A stretch of 25,763 nucleotides of DNA, from the IMG/VR virus record IMGVR_UViG_2609459852_000021. One strand, 5' to 3'. Under the pieces are notes generated by a model. That model was not told the origin of the DNA, did not search any database, and was given only the letters and a program-made list of their open reading frames with translations. Both the position numbers and the translations under genes were made by a program. Positions 5,337 through 25,763 of the stretch are shown one piece after another (the first letter of the stretch is position 1; every line of letters begins with the position of its first letter). This stretch comes from a virus (lineage: Duplodnaviria > Heunggongvirae > Uroviricota > Caudoviricetes).

Positions 5337-6636
5337 TCTCCCGCATATTGCCAGCATGGCCTTTAATGAGCCGCTGATGCTTGACCCCGCCTATGCGCGG
5401 GTTTTCTTTTGTGCGCTTGCAGGCCAGCTTGGGATCAGCCGCCTGACGGATGCGGTGTCCGGTGACAGCCTGGTTGCCGGAGAGGTACCCGCGACGCTGG
5501 CGTTATCCGGTGATGATGACGGACCACGACAGGCCCGCAGTTATCAGGTCATGAACGGCATCGCCGTGCTGCCGGTGTCCGGCACGCTGGTCAGCCGGAC
5601 GCGGGCGCTGCAGCCGTATTCGGGAATGACCGGTTACAACGGCATTATCGCCCGTCTGCAACAGGCTGCCAGGGACCCGATGGTGGACGGCATTCTGCTC
5701 GATATGGACACGCCCGGCGGAATGGTGGCAGGGGCATTTGACTGCGCTGACATCATCGCCCGTGTGCGTGACATAAAGCCGGTATGGGCGCTGGCCAATG
5801 ACATGAACTGCAGTGCAGGGCAGTTGCTTGCCAGCGCCGCCTCCCGGCGTCTGGTCACGCAGACCGCCCGGACAGGCTCCATCGGCGTCATGATGGCTCA
5901 CAGTAATTACGGTGCTGCGCTGGAGAAACAGGGCGTGGAAATCACGCTGATTTACAGCGGCAGCCATAAGGTGGATGGCAACCCCTACAGCCATCTTCCG
6001 GATGACGTCCGGGAGACACTGCAGTCCCGGATGGATGCAACCCGCCAGATGTTTGCGCAGAAGGTGTCGGCATATACCGGCCTGTCCGTGCAGGCTGTGC
6101 TGGATACCGAGGCTGCAGTGTACAGCGGTCAGGAGGCCATTGATGCCGGACTGGCTGATGAACTTGTCAACAGCACCGATGCGATCACCGTTATGCGTGA
6201 TGCACTGGATGCACGTAAATCCCGTCTCTCAGGAGGGCGAATGACCAAAGAGACTCAATCAACAACTGTTTCAGCCACTGCTTCGCAGGCTGACGTTACT
6301 GACGTGGTGCCAGCGACGGAGGGCGAAAACGCCAGCGCGGCGCAGCCGGACGTGAACGCGCAGATCACCGCTGCGGTTGCGGCAGAAAACAGCCGCATTA
6401 TGGGGATCCTCAACTGTGAGGAGGCTCACGGACGCGAAGAACAGGCCCGCGTGCTGGCAGAAACCCCCGGTATGACCGTGGAAACGGCCCGCCGCATTCT
6501 GGCCGCAGCACCACAGAGTGCACAGGCGCGCAGTGACACTGCGCTGGATCGTCTGATGCAGGGGGCACCGGCACCGCTGGCTGCAGGTAACCCGGCATCT
6601 GATGCCGTTAACGATTTGCTGAACACACCAGTGTAA
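5316..6636 (+). CDS. C: prohead protease C (S49/ClpP-like), GTG start
   Basis: In-frame match to lambda gpC starting (V/M)TAELRNLPHIASMAF; GTG at 5316 preceded by GAGGAGGAG; the listed ORF 5182-6636 is the same frame extended upstream to an earlier ATG inside B. Confidence 0.88.
6241..6636 (+). CDS. nu3: scaffolding protein Nu3, nested in-frame within the 3' end of C
   Basis: Internal ATG at 6241 (MTKETQSTTVSATASQ...) preceded by AGGAGGG; shares frame and stop with C, as recalled for lambda Nu3. Confidence 0.7.
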   Translation: MTKETQSTTVSATASQADVTDVVPATEGENASAAQPDVNAQITAAVAAENSRIMGILNCEEAHGREEQARVLAETPGMTVETARRILAAAPQSAQARSDTALDRLMQGAPAPLAAGNPASDAVNDLLNTPV

Positions 6637-6645
6637 GGGATGTTT

Positions 6646-6978
6646 ATGACGAGCAAAGAAACCTTTACCCATTACCAGCCGCTGGGCAACAGTGACCCGG
6701 CACATACGGCAACCGCGCCCGGCGGATTGAGTGCGAAAGCGCCTGCAATGACCCCGCTGATGCTGGATACCTCCACCCGTAAGCTGGTTGCGTGGGATGG
6801 CACCACCGACGGTGCTGCCGTTGGCATTCTGGCGGTTGATGCTGACCAGATCAGCACCACGCTGACGTTCTACAAGTCCGGCACGTTCCGTTATGAGGAT
6901 GTGCTCTGGCCGGAGGCTGCCAGCGACGAGACGAAAAAACGGACCGCGTTTGCCGGAACGGCAATCAGCATCGTTTAA
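6646..6978 (+). CDS. D: head decoration protein D
   Basis: [27 protein letters not shown]... matches lambda gpD; start taken at the second ATG (6646), with AAGGGA upstream. Confidence 0.95.
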
Positions 6979-19868: not shown

Positions 19869-20468
19869 ATGCGTAAATTATGTGCTGTTATTCTGTCCGC
19901 AGTAGTCTGGCTGGTTGCCGCTGGTACGCCAGCGAGCGCAGCAGAGCATCAGTCCACACTAAGCGCCGGGTATCTTCAGACTCATACTGATATGCCAGGC
20001 AGTGATGACCTGAAGGGCATTAACGTGAAATACCGTTATGAATTTACGGACACGCTGGGGCTGGTGACGTCATTCAGTTATGCCAATGCCAAAGATGAGC
20101 AAAAAACGCATTACAGCGATACCCGCTGGCATGAAGATTCAGTGCGTAACCGCTGGTTCAGCATGATGGCGGGGCCATCTGTACGCGTGAATGAATGGTT
20201 CAGTGCTTATGCGATGGCAGGTGTGGCTTACAGCCGTGTTTCGACGTTCTCCGGGGATTATCTCCGCGTAACTGACAACAAGGGGAAAACGCACGATGTG
20301 CTGACCGGAAGTGATGACGATCGCCACAGCAACACGTCTCTGGCGTGGGGAGCTGGCGTGCAGTTTAACCCGACCGAATCCGTGGCCATTGATATTGCTT
20401 ATGAAGGCTCCGGCAGTGGCGACTGGCGCACTGACGGTTTCATCGTGGGTGTCGGTTATAAGTTCTGA
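19869..20468 (+). CDS. lom: outer membrane protein Lom (Ail/Lom family)
   Basis: 199-aa ORF with a signal peptide (MRKLCAVILSAVVWLVAAGTPASA) and C-terminal ...GFIVGVGYKF, matching lambda Lom; bracketed by terminator hairpins. Confidence 0.9.
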   Translation: MRKLCAVILSAVVWLVAAGTPASAAEHQSTLSAGYLQTHTDMPGSDDLKGINVKYRYEFTDTLGLVTSFSYANAKDEQKTHYSDTRWHEDSVRNRWFSMMAGPSVRVNEWFSAYAMAGVAYSRVSTFSGDYLRVTDNKGKTHDVLTGSDDDRHSNTSLAWGAGVQFNPTESVAIDIAYEGSGSGDWRTDGFIVGVGYKF

Positions 20469-20494
20469 TTAGCCAGGTAACACAGTGTTATGAC

Positions 20495-20521
20495 AGCCCG
20501 CCGGTTCAGGCGGGCTTTTTT
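20495..20521 (+). terminator. rho-independent terminator downstream of lom
   Basis: AGCCCGCC-GGTTCA-GGCGGGCT 8-bp stem followed by TTTTTT. Confidence 0.65.
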
Positions 20522-20532
20522 GTGGAGTGGAT

Positions 20533-22911
20533 ATGGCAGCAGTAAAAATCTCAGGTGTGCTGAAAGATGGTGCGGGAAAACCAATACAGAACTGCACTAT
20601 TCAACTGAAGGCAAAGCGTAACAGCACCACGGTACTGGTGAACACGGTGGCCTCTGAAAATCCGGATGAAGCCGGGCGTTACAGCATGGACGTTGAGTAT
20701 GGTCAGTACAGCGTCATCCTGTGGATTGAGGGTTCTCAGCCATCACATGTTGGGACCATTACCGTCTATGAAGGTTCCAGTCCGGGGACGCTGAATGATT
20801 TTCTCGGTGCCATGACGGAAGATGATGTCATGCCGGAGGCATTGCGCCGTTTTCAGGCAATGGTGGAAGAAGCGGCACGCAACGCCGAAGCCGCCTCTCA
20901 GAGCGCAGCGGCGGCAAAGAAATCCGAAACTGCAGCGGCATCATCGAAGAACGCGGCGAAAACCTCAGAAACGAATGCAGCTAATAGTGCACAGGCGGCA
21001 GCGACCTCAAAGACTGCATCGGCAAACTCCGCGACAGCAGCCAAAAAATCAGAAACCAACGCGAAAAATAGCGAGACAGCCGCAAAGACGAGCGAAACCA
21101 ACGCAAAGTCCAGCCAGACGGCAGCGAAAACCAGCGAAACGAATACCAAAGCCAGTGAAACTGCGGCGAAAAACAGCCAGGATGCAGCGGCCCAAAGCGA
21201 GAGTGCCGCAGCTGGTTCTGCAAGTGCGGCGGCTTCTTCTGCCACTGCATCAGCCAACAGTCAAAAAGCTGCAAAAACCAGCGAAACTAACGCAAAGTCC
21301 AGCCAGACGGCAGCGAAGACCAGCGAAACGAATGCCAAAGCCAGCGAAACTGCGGCGAAAAACAGTCAGGATGCAGCAGCCCAAAGCGAGAGTGCTGCAG
21401 CTGGTTCTGCAAGCGCGGCGGCTGCTTCTGCCACTGCATCAGCCAACAGTCAAAAAGCAGCAAAAACCAGTGAAACCAATGCAAAGACAAGCGAGACTGC
21501 AGCGGCGAACTCGGCGAAAGCATCGGCAGCAAGCCAGACAGCAGCTAAAGCAAGTGAAGACGCAGCCAGAGAGTATGCAAGTCAGGCAGCAGAGCCGTAT
21601 AAATATGTCTTACAGCCACTGCCTGATGTGTGGATACCATTTAACGATTCACTGGATATGATTACGGGCTTTTCGCCATCTTATAAAAAGATTGTTATTG
21701 GTGACGACGAAATAACGATGCCTGGTGACAAGGTGGTTAAGTTTAAACGCGCATCAAAAGCAACTTACATTAATAAATCTGGTGTGCTGACAGAGGCTAC
21801 CATTGACGAGCCACGATTTGAACGTGATGGCCTGCTTATTGAGGGGCAAAGAACGAACTTCTTCCCGAACAGTACAGACCCTTCGAAGTGGAATAAGTCA
21901 ACTTCACTGGACGTTACAGAAACAGGCACAGATAGTTTCGGTTTTAATTATGGCCGGTTTGTCGTACAGGATTCGATTGTTGGTACAAGTAAAGCGCATA
22001 CCATTATCGGACTGTATTCGAGTACCGGAGGGGTTGATACTTCAGGGGACGAAAAGTATGTAACTATATCCTGTCGGGTAAAAAGTGAAGTTGATAATAT
22101 CGACGTTCGTATTTTATTTGAACATTATGATGGGGAGGTAAGGACATCAATAGGAACAGCAAGCCTGAACCTTACCACCCGCATAATTAGCAAGACAGGT
22201 CAGACAAGCCGTGTTACAGCAAGGTCTGTTAAGGATGATGCAACTGGCTGGATATTTTTTGAGGCTACATTAAAAGCAGATACAACAGAAAATACGGTTG
22301 GTGGTTTCGTCCAGTATTCTCCGGATACAGGTCAGATGGTGGCATCAGGGGATTGTCTCGATGTAACCACTCCCCAGATTGAGGCTGGTACAGGCGCATC
22401 ATCTTTTATTGTTACGGGGGCTGCACCGGTAACGCGGGCAAGCGATATAGTTACAGTCCCAATTAAGAATAATCTTTATAATCTACCTTTTACGGTTCTT
22501 TGTGAGGTACATAAGAACTGGTATAAAACGCCAAATGCAGCACCGCGTGTTTTTGATACCGGCGGTCATCAAACCGGAGCGGCTATTATTCTTGGCTTCG
22601 GTTCTTCAGCAGATTACGACGGATTTCCTTATTGCGATATTGGTGGGGCTAACAGGCGGATAAACGAAAATGCATCGCTTGAAAAAATGGTTATGGGGAT
22701 GCGTGTAAAGTCAGATCAGTCTACATGCGCAGTAAGTAACGGGCGTATATCCAGCGAAACAAAAACCACATGGTCCTGTATTCAGAACTCCGCAATTATC
22801 CGTATTGGAGGCCAGACTACAGCCGGTTTACGCCATTTATTTGGTCATGTCAGGAATTTCAGAATATGGCACAAGGCATTGACTGATGCTCAGGTGGGGG
22901 AGTTAATCTAA
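20533..22911 (+). CDS. stf: side tail fibre protein (lambda Stf-like N-terminus, Ala/Ser/Thr-rich repeat shaft, non-lambda C-terminal receptor-binding region)
   Basis: N-terminus MAAVKISGVLKDGAGKPIQNCTIQLKA... matches lambda Stf; shaft built of SETNAK/TAAKTSE-type repeats; the C-terminal ~430 aa lacks the His-rich lambda tip and ends ...FRIWHKALTDAQVGELI (possibly a LamG/ConA-like jelly roll). Start at ATG 20533; an in-frame GTG lies at 20527. Confidence 0.88.
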   Translation: MAAVKISGVLKDGAGKPIQNCTIQLKAKRNSTTVLVNTVASENPDEAGRYSMDVEYGQYSVILWIEGSQPSHVGTITVYEGSSPGTLNDFLGAMTEDDVMPEALRRFQAMVEEAARNAEAASQSAAAAKKSETAAASSKNAAKTSETNAANSAQAAATSKTASANSATAAKKSETNAKNSETAAKTSETNAKSSQTAAKTSETNTKASETAAKNSQDAAAQSESAAAGSASAAASSATASANSQKAAKTSETNAKSSQTAAKTSETNAKASETAAKNSQDAAAQSESAAAGSASAAAASATASANSQKAAKTSETNAKTSETAAANSAKASAASQTAAKASEDAAREYASQAAEPYKYVLQPLPDVWIPFNDSLDMITGFSPSYKKIVIGDDEITMPGDKVVKFKRASKATYINKSGVLTEATIDEPRFERDGLLIEGQRTNFFPNSTDPSKWNKSTSLDVTETGTDSFGFNYGRFVVQDSIVGTSKAHTIIGLYSSTGGVDTSGDEKYVTISCRVKSEVDNIDVRILFEHYDGEVRTSIGTASLNLTTRIISKTGQTSRVTARSVKDDATGWIFFEATLKADTTENTVGGFVQYSPDTGQMVASGDCLDVTTPQIEAGTGASSFIVTGAAPVTRASDIVTVPIKNNLYNLPFTVLCEVHKNWYKTPNAAPRVFDTGGHQTGAAIILGFGSSADYDGFPYCDIGGANRRINENASLEKMVMGMRVKSDQSTCAVSNGRISSETKTTWSCIQNSAIIRIGGQTTAGLRHLFGHVRNFRIWHKALTDAQVGELI
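21085..21462 (+). repeat. perfect-frame tandem duplication, 2 x 189 bp (63 aa), inside stf; partial third unit to about 21490
   Basis: Units starting at 21085 and 21274 are near-identical at nucleotide level and encode KTSETNAKSSQTAAKTSETN(T/A)KASETAAKNSQDAAAQSESAAAGSASAAA(S/A)SATASANSQKAA twice. Confidence 0.85.
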
Positions 22912-23192
22912 TGAAAGATTTAACACTCAAATTTGTCGACAGGGCCGACTTTTCGGCCTTTATGGAGAGCATTGGCTATTATGATGACGAGTCGATGCAG
23001 GATGATATTCTTATTGACGTGATAGGTAATGTGTACAAAGAAACCGGAGAACTTACTGAAGATGGCGAGCCGGTATGTGTTAAGGAGGACGGATATTTTG
23101 TAAGCGTGCGCATCATTAATGATGCAAAAAAATCGTCAATATTCGATAAATACGCGATTGTTGTTGAGCATCAACTTCGTGGCTGGATGTGA
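22911..23192 (+). CDS. hypothetical acidic protein, 93 aa (possible tail-fibre chaperone or accessory protein)
   Basis: ATG overlaps the stf stop by 1 nt (TAATG); about 20 Asp/Glu against 10 Lys/Arg; no family recognised. Confidence 0.55.
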   Translation: MKDLTLKFVDRADFSAFMESIGYYDDESMQDDILIDVIGNVYKETGELTEDGEPVCVKEDGYFVSVRIINDAKKSSIFDKYAIVVEHQLRGWM

Positions 23193-23201
23193 GGGAGACA
23201 A

Positions 23202-23906
23202 ATGGCTACATCGACAGTAATTCCTGATGACATCAAAACGCTAAAGGGAGATGTCAGTAAAGCCAAGGAAGATATTTCCTCAATTAACGGAAAAGTATCA
23301 ACGCTTCAGACTGATATGACCAGTGCAAAGCAGGATATCAGCTCCAGATACACAAAAACTGAAGTTGATAATAAGCTGAAAAACAAACTGGAAGTGAACG
23401 CTCTGGAAAGCGGTCGTTATGGTGGAGATTTTTACCCGCTGACTGGCCGTGAAGCGTTTTATTTGTGGGGATTGGGCACGACTACAGCGGCGGCAAACCT
23501 TTATCTTAATCCTGACTCCGCAATTTCGTCTGTACTGCGGTCAACATCGTCTATCCGCTATAAAGATTCAGTAGAGACAATAGATTCAGAGCACGCCGAT
23601 CTCATTTTCAGGATGCGCCCTGTGTGGTACAGGTCGCAATGCGAAAATGACAGGCGTGACTGGGGATTCTACGGATTGATTGCCGAGGAAGTAGGAGAAA
23701 TTGCCCCTCAGTTTGTACACTGGCGACCAGCTAACGAGAATGATGCTCCTGAAGCTATTTCCAGCAATGGCCTTGTTGCCGAAGGTGTAATGTACGAACG
23801 TCTGGTTGTTCCACTGATTCACCATATCCAGAAACTGACTGAAAGAGTTGATGAACTTGAGTCAGAATTAAAGCTGTTATCAACTTCCCGAAGCGATATC
23901 GGATAA
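23202..23906 (+). CDS. small tail-fibre-like protein with C-terminal intramolecular chaperone (peptidase S74-like) domain
   Basis: RBS GAGGGAG; N-terminal heptad/coiled-coil segment (DIKTLKGDVSKAKEDISSINGKVSTLQTDMTSAKQDISS); C-terminal half carries S-x-x-R-x-K (SSIRYK), RPVWYR, GFYGLIAEEVGEIAPQFV, GVMYERLVVPLIHHIQKL and a terminal coiled coil, which I recall as the endosialidase/T5 pb1 chaperone-domain signature. Confidence 0.6.
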   Translation: MATSTVIPDDIKTLKGDVSKAKEDISSINGKVSTLQTDMTSAKQDISSRYTKTEVDNKLKNKLEVNALESGRYGGDFYPLTGREAFYLWGLGTTTAAANLYLNPDSAISSVLRSTSSIRYKDSVETIDSEHADLIFRMRPVWYRSQCENDRRDWGFYGLIAEEVGEIAPQFVHWRPANENDAPEAISSNGLVAEGVMYERLVVPLIHHIQKLTERVDELESELKLLSTSRSDIG

Positions 23907-23916
23907 AGGAGGAGTA

Positions 23917-24210
23917 ATGGATATAAGCCCCTTACTTCATGCACTTTGTGCTGTGGCTGCGCAGACACTGGTTGGTCTTTTTACCGGAAACTGGGCTTAC
24001 GGAGCGATAGCCGGTTGTGCGTTCTTCATTGCGCGTGAACACACCCAGGCAGAATATCGCTGGATTGAAATGTTCGGGCATGGCAAGCGAATGAATATGC
24101 CGTGGTGGGGCGGTTTTGATCCGCGCGCGTGGGATGTGGCAAGCCTGATGGATTTTGCTGTGCCGGTGGTGGCGTGTCTGCTGGTCTGGCTGTTGGTTAA
24201 TCGTGGGTGA
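23917..24210 (+). CDS. small membrane protein, 97 aa, about 3 predicted TM helices
   Basis: Strong RBS AGGAGG; hydrophobic segments PLLHALCAVAAQTLVGLFTG, AYGAIAGCAFFIA and FAVPVVACLLVWLLV; no family recognised. Confidence 0.5.
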   Translation: MDISPLLHALCAVAAQTLVGLFTGNWAYGAIAGCAFFIAREHTQAEYRWIEMFGHGKRMNMPWWGGFDPRAWDVASLMDFAVPVVACLLVWLLVNRG

Positions 24211-24220
24211 AAAAAGGTGA

Positions 24221-24349
24221 GCTGTATATGCAACGGAGGAAGAAACCTCGTTGCGGGAAGCCTGGAAGAAGTATCGGGTGTTGCTGAACCGTGTTGATAC
24301 ATCAACTGCACCTGATATTGAGCGGCCTGTGAACCCTGTCAGGGAGTAA
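24221..24349 (+). pseudogene. tfa: 3' remnant of a tail fibre assembly gene (tfa), no start codon
   Basis: Frame opens directly after a TGA and encodes ...[39 protein letters not shown], the conserved C-terminus of lambda-family Tfa proteins. Confidence 0.6.
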
Positions 24350-24363
24350 TCATTGGGATTATG

Positions 24364-24396
24364 CCGCAGCACGTCTTAAGCAAGAACGTGCTGCGG
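24364..24396. terminator. 10-bp stem-loop between the tfa remnant and the 3' end of the methyltransferase gene (possible bidirectional terminator)
   Basis: CCGCAGCACG-(13-nt loop)-CGTGCTGCGG; a T-run (TATTTTTT) follows about 10 nt downstream on the + strand, so the terminator call is weak. Confidence 0.35.
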
Positions 24397-24403
24397 TTGG
24401 ATG

Positions 24404-25072
24404 CTATTTTTTCCCTGAAGCGGAAAACATTACTACAGTACCTTGAACCTTGGTTTTAACATTCTCGAAATGCTCTGAGAGTATATGTGTTAAGCCTTCT
24501 TCGGAATCTTTTGTGTTTGAAAAGATGCCTTTCTGATTGTAAATGCGCATCAGTTTTTGACCGAAGCTATTGTGCACAACTCCATCGCCAAGAATTGTGG
24601 CTCCGTATAGAGTTCCATCGTCAGTTAAGGCCTGCGCCGCATTGCGTATTACACAGCTTTTTGTAGATATATTTCCAGGCAGGCAGTGAAGAAGGTAAAA
24701 CATGGAAATGGAATCAAATTGACCATGTAACGTCGCGGGATAAGGTTCAAAAACATCATGGCTAATTTTATGTTTAATTTTTGATTCCCCAGCCCTTGTA
24801 GATGCCGCGTTCAGGCTAGCTTCGTTCAAATCCATTAAAGATATCAGACTACTCTCAGGTACGTGAGTAAGGTAAAACCCAGTTCCAACACCAATATCCA
24901 GATGGTTGTTACCTAAATGTTCCAGAAAGTGTGGAAGAAGGTGTTCCTTTGTAGGACATCCCCATGCAAGCCGATTTGATACTCCCAAAACCCACCAGTC
25001 ATAAAGCTTTAGGGTAAGTGGTGTGTAAATTTTAGCCCCATCATCTGTGTTTTTTTTCATTAATTTCACCAT
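24404..25072 (-). CDS. class I SAM-dependent methyltransferase, substrate unknown (probable start at 25060, MKKNTDD...)
   Basis: Minus-strand ORF with Rossmann motif I LDIGVGTGFY, an acidic post-I strand (SLMDLNEAS) and FDSISMFYLLHCLP; no DPPY/NPPY or Pro-Cys motif, so it is unlikely to be a DNA methyltransferase; AT-rich. Confidence 0.75.
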   Translation of the reverse strand: MVKLMKKNTDDGAKIYTPLTLKLYDWWVLGVSNRLAWGCPTKEHLLPHFLEHLGNNHLDIGVGTGFYLTHVPESSLISLMDLNEASLNAASTRAGESKIKHKISHDVFEPYPATLHGQFDSISMFYLLHCLPGNISTKSCVIRNAAQALTDDGTLYGATILGDGVVHNSFGQKLMRIYNQKGIFSNTKDSEEGLTHILSEHFENVKTKVQGTVVMFSASGKK

Positions 25073-25091
25073 GTTATAGTTTTATTTGTGA

Positions 25092-25120
25092 ATTAAATCA
25101 ATTACGGCGATGAATTACAA
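25092..25120 (-). promoter_or_regulatory. putative sigma70-like promoter for the methyltransferase gene
   Basis: On the minus strand: TTGTAA, 17-nt spacer, TTTAAT, about 20 nt upstream of the ATG at 25060; judged by eye only. Confidence 0.25.
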
Positions 25121-25128
25121 GGGGTTAA

Positions 25129-25398
25129 ATGCTGCCGCAGCATAGCGATATTGAAATAGCCTGGTATGCTTCGATACAGCAGGAGCCGAATGGCTGGAAG
25201 ACCGTCACCACACAGTTCTACATCCAGGAATTCAGTGAGCATATTGTGCCACTTCAGGATGCTGTAGATCTGGAGATCGCAACGGAGGAAGAAAACTCGT
25301 TGCTGGAAGCCTAGAGGAAGTATCGGGTGTTGCTGAACCGTGTTGATACATCAACTGCACCTGATATTGAGTGGCCTGCAAATCCTGTCAGGGAGTAA
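25129..25398 (+). pseudogene. tfa: truncated tfa-like gene with in-frame amber codon at 25312-25314
   Basis: Encodes [91 protein letters not shown]; the amber codon falls where Tfa homologues have Trp (TGG); the frame opens immediately after a TAA, so the N-terminus is much shorter than in the 194-aa lambda Tfa. Confidence 0.55.
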
Positions 25399-25448
25399 TC
25401 ATTGGGATTATGCCGCAGACACGTCGTATGCAGGAACGTGCTGCGGTT
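25262..25448 (+). repeat. direct repeat copy 2 (tfa 3' end plus downstream hairpin)
   Basis: About 90% identical to 24215-24398; includes an imperfect hairpin at 25413-25446. Confidence 0.8.
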
Positions 25449-25514
25449 AGTTTGTGAGCTTTCGATAGTGCGAGTATTGAATGATTTCCAGCCGTTACCG
25501 ATTTTACGTGCTAA

Positions 25515-25763
25515 TTAGTGAACAAACCACTCGTCAGCAGACTCCCAGGTATCTTTCAGAGTTTCCTGAACAAAAGTTTTAGCTGAATCTTTATCGGCGG
25601 TGCGCGTAACAGAAAGGCCATCGTTGCTGGTGGCTTTTACGATCACCTCTACATCGTCATAACGTTTACTGATGCGTCGGGTTAATTCTTCCTTTAACGC
25701 ATCCACAGCACCGGTTGGCATTTTAGTCATTTTTTCTTTGGCTATGCAGATTTCAATACGCAT
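25515..25763 (-). CDS. DinI-like protein
   Basis: 82-aa minus-strand [40 protein letters not shown]...[15 protein letters not shown] resembling the DinI family; start codon sits at the last three bases of the window, so the upstream region is not visible. Confidence 0.8.

Follow-up and report, generated by a model that had tools for sequence, protein, structure and literature searches.

The locus and its repeats

The DNA analysed here is the virus record IMGVR_UViG_2609459852_000021 (Caudoviricetes), a stretch of 25,763 nucleotides (nt) called the window below. Near its right-hand end, a methyltransferase gene lies between two partial copies of the tail-fibre assembly gene tfa, designated A and B. 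The copies are in direct orientation, both on the + strand, with a spacing of 1049 to 1050 nt, and the methyltransferase gene is convergent to copy A. The features of the unit and its right-hand flank are as follows.

24230-24398, + strand: repeat copy A (169 nt), made of the last 39 tfa codons (24230-24346), the stop codon TAA (24347-24349) and a hairpin with its stem at 24363-24396
24404-25072, - strand: class I S-adenosylmethionine (SAM)-dependent methyltransferase gene (Pfam Methyltransf_12/23/25), 222 amino acids (aa) as annotated
25073-25155, - strand: native upstream region of the methyltransferase gene, 35% GC, also found in locus L005, where copy B is absent
25129-25314, + strand: chimeric open reading frame (ORF) of the tfaX type, a foreign N-terminus (25129-25221) joined to tfa codons, with a TAG at 25312-25314
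25222-25398, + strand: whole stretch of the second remnant that is homologous to tfa (last 58 codons and stop), called a pseudogene, 'internal stop; missing N-terminus', by the Prokaryotic Genome Annotation Pipeline (PGAP)
25279-25448, + strand: repeat copy B (170 nt), with a weaker hairpin whose stem lies at about 25412-25446
25515-25763, - strand: dinI-like gene (Pfam DinI), the right-hand neighbour whether or not the methyltransferase gene is present

Global alignment of the two copies gave 158 matches over 170 columns, that is, 92.9% identity. The repeat search reported them as two pairs, 24230-24369 with 25279-25418 (140 nt, 94%) and 24370-24398 with 25420-25448 (29 nt, 90%), the break between them being a single 1-nt indel. 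The same search detected no inverted repeats in 20000-25763. An earlier note on the window had described two repeats of a tfa 3' end plus hairpin, in the same orientation, around an oppositely oriented, AT-rich methyltransferase gene. The repeats are real, but they measure 169/170 nt rather than about 185, at about 93% rather than about 90% identity. The gene between them is indeed on the minus strand and has a GC content of 40.7%, compared to 51 to 52% for the repeats and 54.1% for the window.

Each copy retains 39 tfa codons, close to the 40 that the note had estimated, and matches the Pfam family Caudo_TAP (PF02413) at profile positions 95-130/131 (E 1.2e-13 for copy A). Over the whole second remnant, the match covers positions 75-105 and 107-130 of the 131 in the profile, and the part 3' of the stop codon still scores E 1e-10. 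The N-terminal fibre-binding domain of Tfa, and a complete ORF of about 190 aa, are missing from both pieces, of which 39 and 58 codons are left. The note had distinguished one start-less remnant from one truncated tfa with a stop codon: the stop is present, but both pieces are start-less, as neither has an authentic tfa start. PGAP likewise annotates copy A as 'tail fiber assembly protein, missing N-terminus'. Both hairpins are GC-rich and lie 3' of the tfa stop, hairpin A being the more stable (-28.5 kcal/mol, z -5.2) compared to hairpin B (-24.1 kcal/mol, z -2.3). At the 3' end of the methyltransferase gene the hairpin is stable on both strands, and a U-run follows it on the + strand only.

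The unit corresponds to a module of prophage DLP12

Positions 24230-25375 of the window align with positions 5832-6975 of the K-12 locus (L002) at 96.7% identity over 1146 nt. In K-12, the order is nohD, a terminase fragment, tfaD, a frameshifted ybcY on the minus strand, tfaX with an internal stop, appY and ompT. The window contains the same succession in the same orientation, a tfa remnant (+), the methyltransferase gene (-) and a chimeric remnant (+), and it shares with K-12 both the junction at which tfa homology begins in the second remnant (25221/25222) and the loss of the same tryptophan codon of tfaX. By its sequence and gene order, the unit is the DLP12 tfaD–ybcY–tfaX module in a different prophage, with copy A as the counterpart of tfaD; it is already annotated, and the arrangement is not new.

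The two settings differ in several respects. DLP12, a cryptic lambdoid prophage, is a remnant at argU, next to appY and ompT, whereas the window belongs to a prophage with full late genes: in E. coli strain 10035776-3, which is 100% identical to the window, an integrase gene and dusA come after dinI. K-12 tfaD keeps 438 nt, compared to 39 codons for copy A, which moreover lies behind another upstream module. The 3' end of copy B retains the hairpin and continues into dinI, that of the K-12 copy into appY. Finally, the stop codon within tfaX is TAG in the window and TGA in K-12.

The methyltransferase gene and its upstream flank (24399-25278) were found in 3948 of 5426 complete E. coli genomes, K-12 MG1655 among them. 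Of the 4939 matching records, 60 were sampled at even steps and classified according to the tfa remnants present. Both remnants surrounded the methyltransferase gene in 33 records (about 55%); eight had only the hairpin upstream, together with copy B (O157:H7 type); five had copy A and no copy B (E2348/69 and 40EC type); and the remaining 14 contained tfa only. Among phages, the viable PhiR26_1 has the order J–lom–stf–full-length tfa–'YbcY'–tfa'–hydrolase–ompT, while the viable 2G7b has a truncated copy A as in the window. The methyltransferase gene directly follows a full-length, functional tfa in DLP12-type phages (L005 and L011), and in L005, as in E2348/69-type genomes, this occurs with no second copy. 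The proposal of the earlier note that a cargo gene was trapped in this very prophage is contradicted by these observations, since the unit is an old and widely shared module, and elsewhere its methyltransferase gene follows a full-length tfa.

Nor do we give any credence to a collapsed or duplicated repeat in the assembly, the outcome that the earlier note had named as fatal to its reading: the same 1864-nt stretch is present at 99.5% identity or more in nine independent complete genomes, and the arrangement recurs in K-12 MG1655, in sequenced phage isolates and in thousands of further genomes.

Further genes are found within the unit in O157:H7 FRIK2069 (L003 2295-5674), where a manganese catalase gene, two ferritin-like (yciE/yciF-like) genes and a general-stress gene lie between a full-length tfa and ybcY. 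In the same genome, an IS66 element is inserted after tfaX.

Occupied and empty sites, breakpoints and gene conversion

Related prophages were compared for occupied and empty sites, as the earlier note had proposed. The query was a synthetic join of the left flank and copy A to the right flank beyond copy B. It matched without interruption over its full length in five genomes, and in about 38 others that have another fibre upstream (about 43 in total); the occupied form with the left flank of the window was present in about 207 genomes. Occupied and empty sites with the same left and right flanks do therefore exist, so that the other outcome named in the note as refuting its reading, one invariable arrangement in all related genomes, did not materialise, and this part of the reading stands. 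Annotation of the empty sites reads fibre module, tfa' (39 codons), hairpin and dinI, with the methyltransferase gene absent. They occur in prophages next to yecD (L007 to L009) and also in phage PhiR49_2. The closest of them are 96.5 to 96.9% identical to the window and use the yecD attachment site, not dusA. Their single copy carries the A-type hairpin as far as the 'GGATG' motif and is joined directly to the dinI flank. Diagnostic single-nucleotide polymorphisms (SNPs) in this copy were considered as a guide to the polarity of the indel and were not decisive, the A-type hairpin being the common allele.

The ends of the segment shared between the window and other loci were then mapped. On the left, they fell at 24230 or 24358. 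On the right, they fell at 25155 (where copy B is absent), 25353, 25375/6, 25470 (about 20 nt past copy B) or beyond 25763. Breakpoints are scattered, and lie repeatedly in or near the repeats.

The two copies are not each other's closest relatives in the comparison across loci. Compared to copy B of L006, its nearest relative, that of the window has 11 differences in 25295-25338 and none over the 103 positions of 25346-25448. Within 25295-25338, it differs at only three to four positions from copy A and from the copies of empty sites, while every other copy B has a distinct tfaX-type pattern there. This segment is a gene-conversion patch in copy B. The patch lifts the A–B identity in the lineage of the window from about 90% to 93%. 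In L006, copies A and B differ at 10 of 67 and 7 of 103 positions, and other genomes carry fixed copy-specific SNPs.

The tfa 3' patch occurs as a dispersed repeat. The stretch 23900-25763, which includes the tfa 3' patch, dinI and the other flank, found matches in 5374 of the 5426 genomes, at a median of five places, and the repeat unit alone in 4925 genomes, at a median of three places. The tfa gene of phage λ matches both copies at 88%. The two tfa fragments of DLP12, from the C-terminal third, were singled out as recombination targets earlier, and Red-mediated recombinants with λ were recovered there (Poteete et al. 2004, PMC545071). With these recombinants, the breakpoints and the conversion patch, the suggestion made in the earlier note that the tfa 3' end acts as a recombination anchor holds.

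The second remnant and its foreign N-terminus

In blastn comparisons with the full-length tfa genes of K-12, L005 and L011, homology in the second remnant begins at 25222, so that it exceeds copy A by 57 nt of tfa. What looks like a start at 25129 belongs not to tfa but to an unrelated N-terminus of 31 codons (25129-25221), of which 25156-25221 was designated segment x. The 35 N-terminal residues of tfaX match phrog_3893, and sequences homologous to them occur in phage Ayreon (75%) and Klebsiella phages (54%). The Ayreon homologue (L021, 3001-3096) lies directly downstream of a tfa remnant. In some genomes, PGAP calls a DinI or hypothetical fragment on the opposite strand of this N-terminus; the dinI fragment annotated in strain Y5 (minus strand, 25147-25242) was examined and set aside, having no convincing similarity in any frame to the DinI of the window.

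The tfaX ORF is interrupted in different ways. The shared tryptophan codon, TGG, has become TAG in the window and TGA in K-12; in strain Y5 the frame is shifted at codon 12, and in phage 2G7b 7 nt are deleted. As a single substitution turns a Trp codon into a stop, the coincidence of two nonsense changes at this codon may mean no more than that. An intact ORF, with three different 3' ends, was present in three of seven sampled lineages, including a viable phage. A conserved function of tfaX is doubtful, given four different inactivating lesions across lineages, and the ORF is a decaying chimeric relic.

Since tfaX combines the conserved oligomerisation domain of Tfa with a foreign N-terminus, and a σ70 site is found in divergent orientation to ybcY, one may imagine that in some lineages its product acts as a decoy that poisons the tail-fibre assembly of competing lambdoid phages, and/or that YbcY methylates an envelope lipid or small molecule, so that lysogenic conversion would be linked to the tail-fibre region. 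We regard this as very doubtful.

The methyltransferase

The gene between the repeats is an orthologue of K-12 ybcY, intact here and frameshifted in K-12. Scores of its product for Methyltransf_12/23/25/11 exceed the cut-offs, and the SAM motif D55-x-G57-x-G59-T60-G61 (DIGVGTG in the protein of the window) is invariant in 35 homologues. Together with a Rossmann-like fold, this glycine-rich motif places the protein among the class I SAM-dependent methyltransferases. The AlphaFold model has a predicted local distance difference test (pLDDT) score of 91.3. Its best Foldseek matches, at probability 1.0, are a phosphatidylethanolamine N-methyltransferase, the juvenile hormone acid methyltransferase (JHAMT), phosphoethanolamine methyltransferases and natural-product methyltransferases, with template modelling (TM) scores of 0.56 to 0.66 and 13 to 21% identity; sequence matches to UbiG and JHAMT were marginal. 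The modelled fold is that of a small-molecule or lipid methyltransferase. A DNA methylase of a restriction-modification system was considered and rejected, as the Pfam domains found are only the generic small-molecule methyltransferase ones and the structural matches are non-DNA enzymes.

Translation probably starts at the ATG at 25060, which gives 218 aa. This start is favoured because the annotated ATG at 25072 abuts the reported -10 hexamer (25078..25073). A length of 218 aa is also usual in the family, and the phrog_2132 profile aligns from residue 5; the start at 25060 would leave a very short leader. The hexamers reported for the K-12 ybcY promoter, TTGATT and TATAAC with a 17-nt spacer, are present in the window at 25101..25073. 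In K-12, systematic evolution of ligands by exponential enrichment (SELEX) on genomic DNA placed an RpoD site flagged 'HNS' (H-NS) between ybcY and tfaX (PMC3946193). The gene may be expressed in the lysogen from its own H-NS-bound σ70 promoter, and its product would act on a small molecule or a lipid.

YbcY homologues with 56 to 65% identity (L013 to L020) are found in Salmonella, Enterobacter and Yersinia as single chromosomal genes with no phage genes near them, at lineage-specific positions. The E. coli gene therefore looks captured from bacteria, and the distribution points to a family of bacterial genes that was sampled a single time by a phage of E. coli. The gene also has two of the attributes of a moron in the sense of Hendrix and Juhala: its neighbours on either side are directly adjacent to each other in related phages (L007 to L009 and PhiR49_2), and its base composition is deviant.

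Prophage context and the upstream fibre module

The window spans the late genes of a λ-like prophage, which run from Nu1/A to stf by way of J and lom and form a complete set. Between stf and copy A lies a Tfa-independent tail-fibre module of three ORFs, identified by Pfam and PHROG matches.

22911-24210, + strand: Tfa-independent tail-fibre module as a whole
22911-23192, + strand: ORF of 93 aa (phrog_1361)
23202-23906, + strand: fibre segment of 234 aa with a Peptidase_S74 intramolecular chaperone
23917-24210, + strand: ORF of 97 aa (phrog_1443), a putative membrane protein as judged from its hydrophobic sequence only

The junction between this module and tfa' (24229/24230) is identical in L006 to L010 and in L012, whether the site is occupied or empty. 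Copy A thus appears to have been cut to 39 codons by a separate event, in which stf-tfa gave way to the fibre module and its S74 chaperone.

At the left end of the window, positions 1-1625 (a DUF1398 ybcV-like gene, an ylcI-like gene and a nohD-like small terminase gene) are syntenic with K-12 DLP12 (L002 3038-5233). Compared to this arrangement, K-12 DLP12 looks like a deletion derivative that joins a terminase fragment directly to tfaD. The stf gene (20527-22911) contains a 189-nt tandem duplication (21067-21255 and 21256-21444, 91% identical), and repeat families spaced by 21/42 nt in 20900-21530 encode a stretch rich in Ala, Ser, Thr and Lys.

Possible history of the locus

We consider it likely that the repeats are the scars of module exchange, and not parts of a dedicated mobile cassette. 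The tfa genes of lambdoid phages vary in their 5' part, which encodes the fibre-binding domain, and are highly conserved in nucleotides in their 3' third, which encodes the C-terminal oligomerisation domain and precedes a conserved hairpin. This patch of about 170 to 230 bp is present several times in an E. coli genome, and its multiplicity would make it a natural right-hand crossover for swaps of tail-fibre modules, performed by homologous recombination of the RecA or the Red/RecT type. For Tfa, the fibre-binding N-terminal domain has been described as variable and the C-terminal domain as conserved (PMC9608196, citing North 2019), and such a domain structure would explain why only the 3' third is conserved.

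The sequence of events may be reconstructed as follows. ybcY would be a moron of bacterial chromosomal origin, set convergently just past tfa and its hairpin in phages of the DLP12 type. On its other side would travel tfaX, a fossil tfa 3' end on an unrelated N-terminus. The window contains a relative of the DLP12 late region that is intact and has dusA as its integration site; the upstream stf-tfa genes would have been replaced in it by the fibre module with the S74 chaperone, leaving the 39 tfa codons of copy A. Copy B is the fossil tfaX. A native tfa–dinI junction is what its 3' part resembles, together with the hairpin and the dinI flank, and its 5' part has been patch-converted by another tfa copy.

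Other histories were weighed against module exchange. The one closest to the earlier note holds that the cargo was captured in this prophage and that the direct repeats are an excision device, RecA- or Red-dependent recombination between A and B yielding the empty sites. Direct repeats of this length and identity, empty sites with both flanks in common, and the proven use of tfa patches as recombination substrates would all be expected from it. We nevertheless find it unlikely, since the unit is old, whole in K-12 and in thousands of genomes, and stable in viable phages, and since the best empty sites are neither close to the window in sequence nor at the same attachment site. In addition, the A-type hairpin of the empty site would demand that, in a window-like ancestor, the crossover between A and B fell within the last 12 nt or so of the repeat. 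Excision between the direct repeats, as predicted by the note, is possible in principle, but the empty sites are not simple products of such a crossover, and among those matched no near-identical or recent deletion derivative was found.

In-situ tandem duplication of the tfa 3' end, with the methyltransferase gene inserted afterwards, would account for the common orientation and high identity of the copies. It is highly improbable when set against the 57 additional nt of tfa and the foreign N-terminus of the second remnant, the greater divergence of A and B elsewhere (L006), where the identity is not raised by a local conversion patch as it is in the window, and the genomes in which the methyltransferase gene follows a full-length tfa with no second copy (L005, E2348/69 type). 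The position of the unit in the tail-fibre region might also evoke a site-specific system, either a Gin/Cin/Pin tail-fibre switch or an integron-like cassette ending in repeats; invertible tail-fibre segments occur in Mu, P1, e14 and p15B. This has almost no chance of being correct: the repeats are direct, with no inverted repeats found around them; no gix-like crossover site was detected at up to three mismatches; no invertase or recombinase gene adjoins the unit, the sole integrase being the dusA-specific phage integrase; and the breakpoints are scattered, not fixed.

Some observations weigh against the history proposed for module exchange. The sequences give no polarity for the 1050-bp indel; the flanks of the empty sites are 96.5 to 96.7% identical to the window on both sides. 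The breakpoint map is drawn from 11 sampled loci and row samples, not from all 5426 genomes. The proposed history does not account for the junction between segment x and tfa at 25221/25222. As to the expression of the cargo, the ybcY promoter rests on in-vitro SELEX from K-12, and no strong promoter came out of a consensus scan of the region that precedes the methyltransferase gene. Lastly, De Paepe et al. (2014, PMC3945230) saw no hotspot of recombination in the stf/tfa homology between λ and Rac, so that 'anchor' should be understood here as shared homology, not as a special site.

Comparison with known systems and implications

In the literature that was searched, nothing specific was found by way of an earlier account of cargo between tfa remnants or of exchangeable effector loci. 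Apart from DLP12 itself, three kinds of system invite comparison. Lambdoid tail-fibre and b-region morons include lom and bor of λ, the effector loci downstream of the tail-fibre genes in prophages of enterohaemorrhagic E. coli, and the sopE cassette of Salmonella phages. The methyltransferase gene resembles them in being autonomous and compositionally deviant, and in occupying the classic place for cargo, between the tail fibres and the attachment/integration end; it differs in that its product is a methyltransferase of small-molecule type and no known virulence or exclusion factor, and in being flanked by two tfa remnants. The invertible segments (G of Mu, C of P1, P of e14, Min of p15B) also have duplicated tfa/stf 3' ends in the tail-fibre region. 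Theirs, however, involve inverted sites, an adjacent serine invertase and a host-range switch, whereas in the window the repeats are direct, an invertase gene is absent and both tfa copies are dead fragments. The third is the mosaicism between λ and resident prophages: stf/tfa DNA passes between λ and the prophages Rac and Qin through relaxed homologous recombination, which depends on Redβ (De Paepe et al. 2014, PMC3945230). The same genes are concerned as in the window, with diverged homology of 88 to 96% as crossover substrate; the difference is that exchange there was with the stf/tfa genes of Rac and Qin, the substrate in DLP12 being the cos/terminase region and not tfaD/tfaX.

As tfaD–ybcY–tfaX has been annotated in K-12 for decades, and its tfa fragments were recombination substrates in 2004, the locus has little value as a discovery. 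It may rather serve as a worked example of how the tfa 3' third and its hairpin, used as a shared crossover, would reshuffle fibre modules and cargo and leave stacked remnants behind. For annotation, this means that tfa fragments beside cargo genes are to be read as mosaic joints, and that ybcY, which about 73% of complete E. coli genomes contain, is to be described, from its domains and modelled structure, as a methyltransferase of small-molecule type and not as a DNA methyltransferase.

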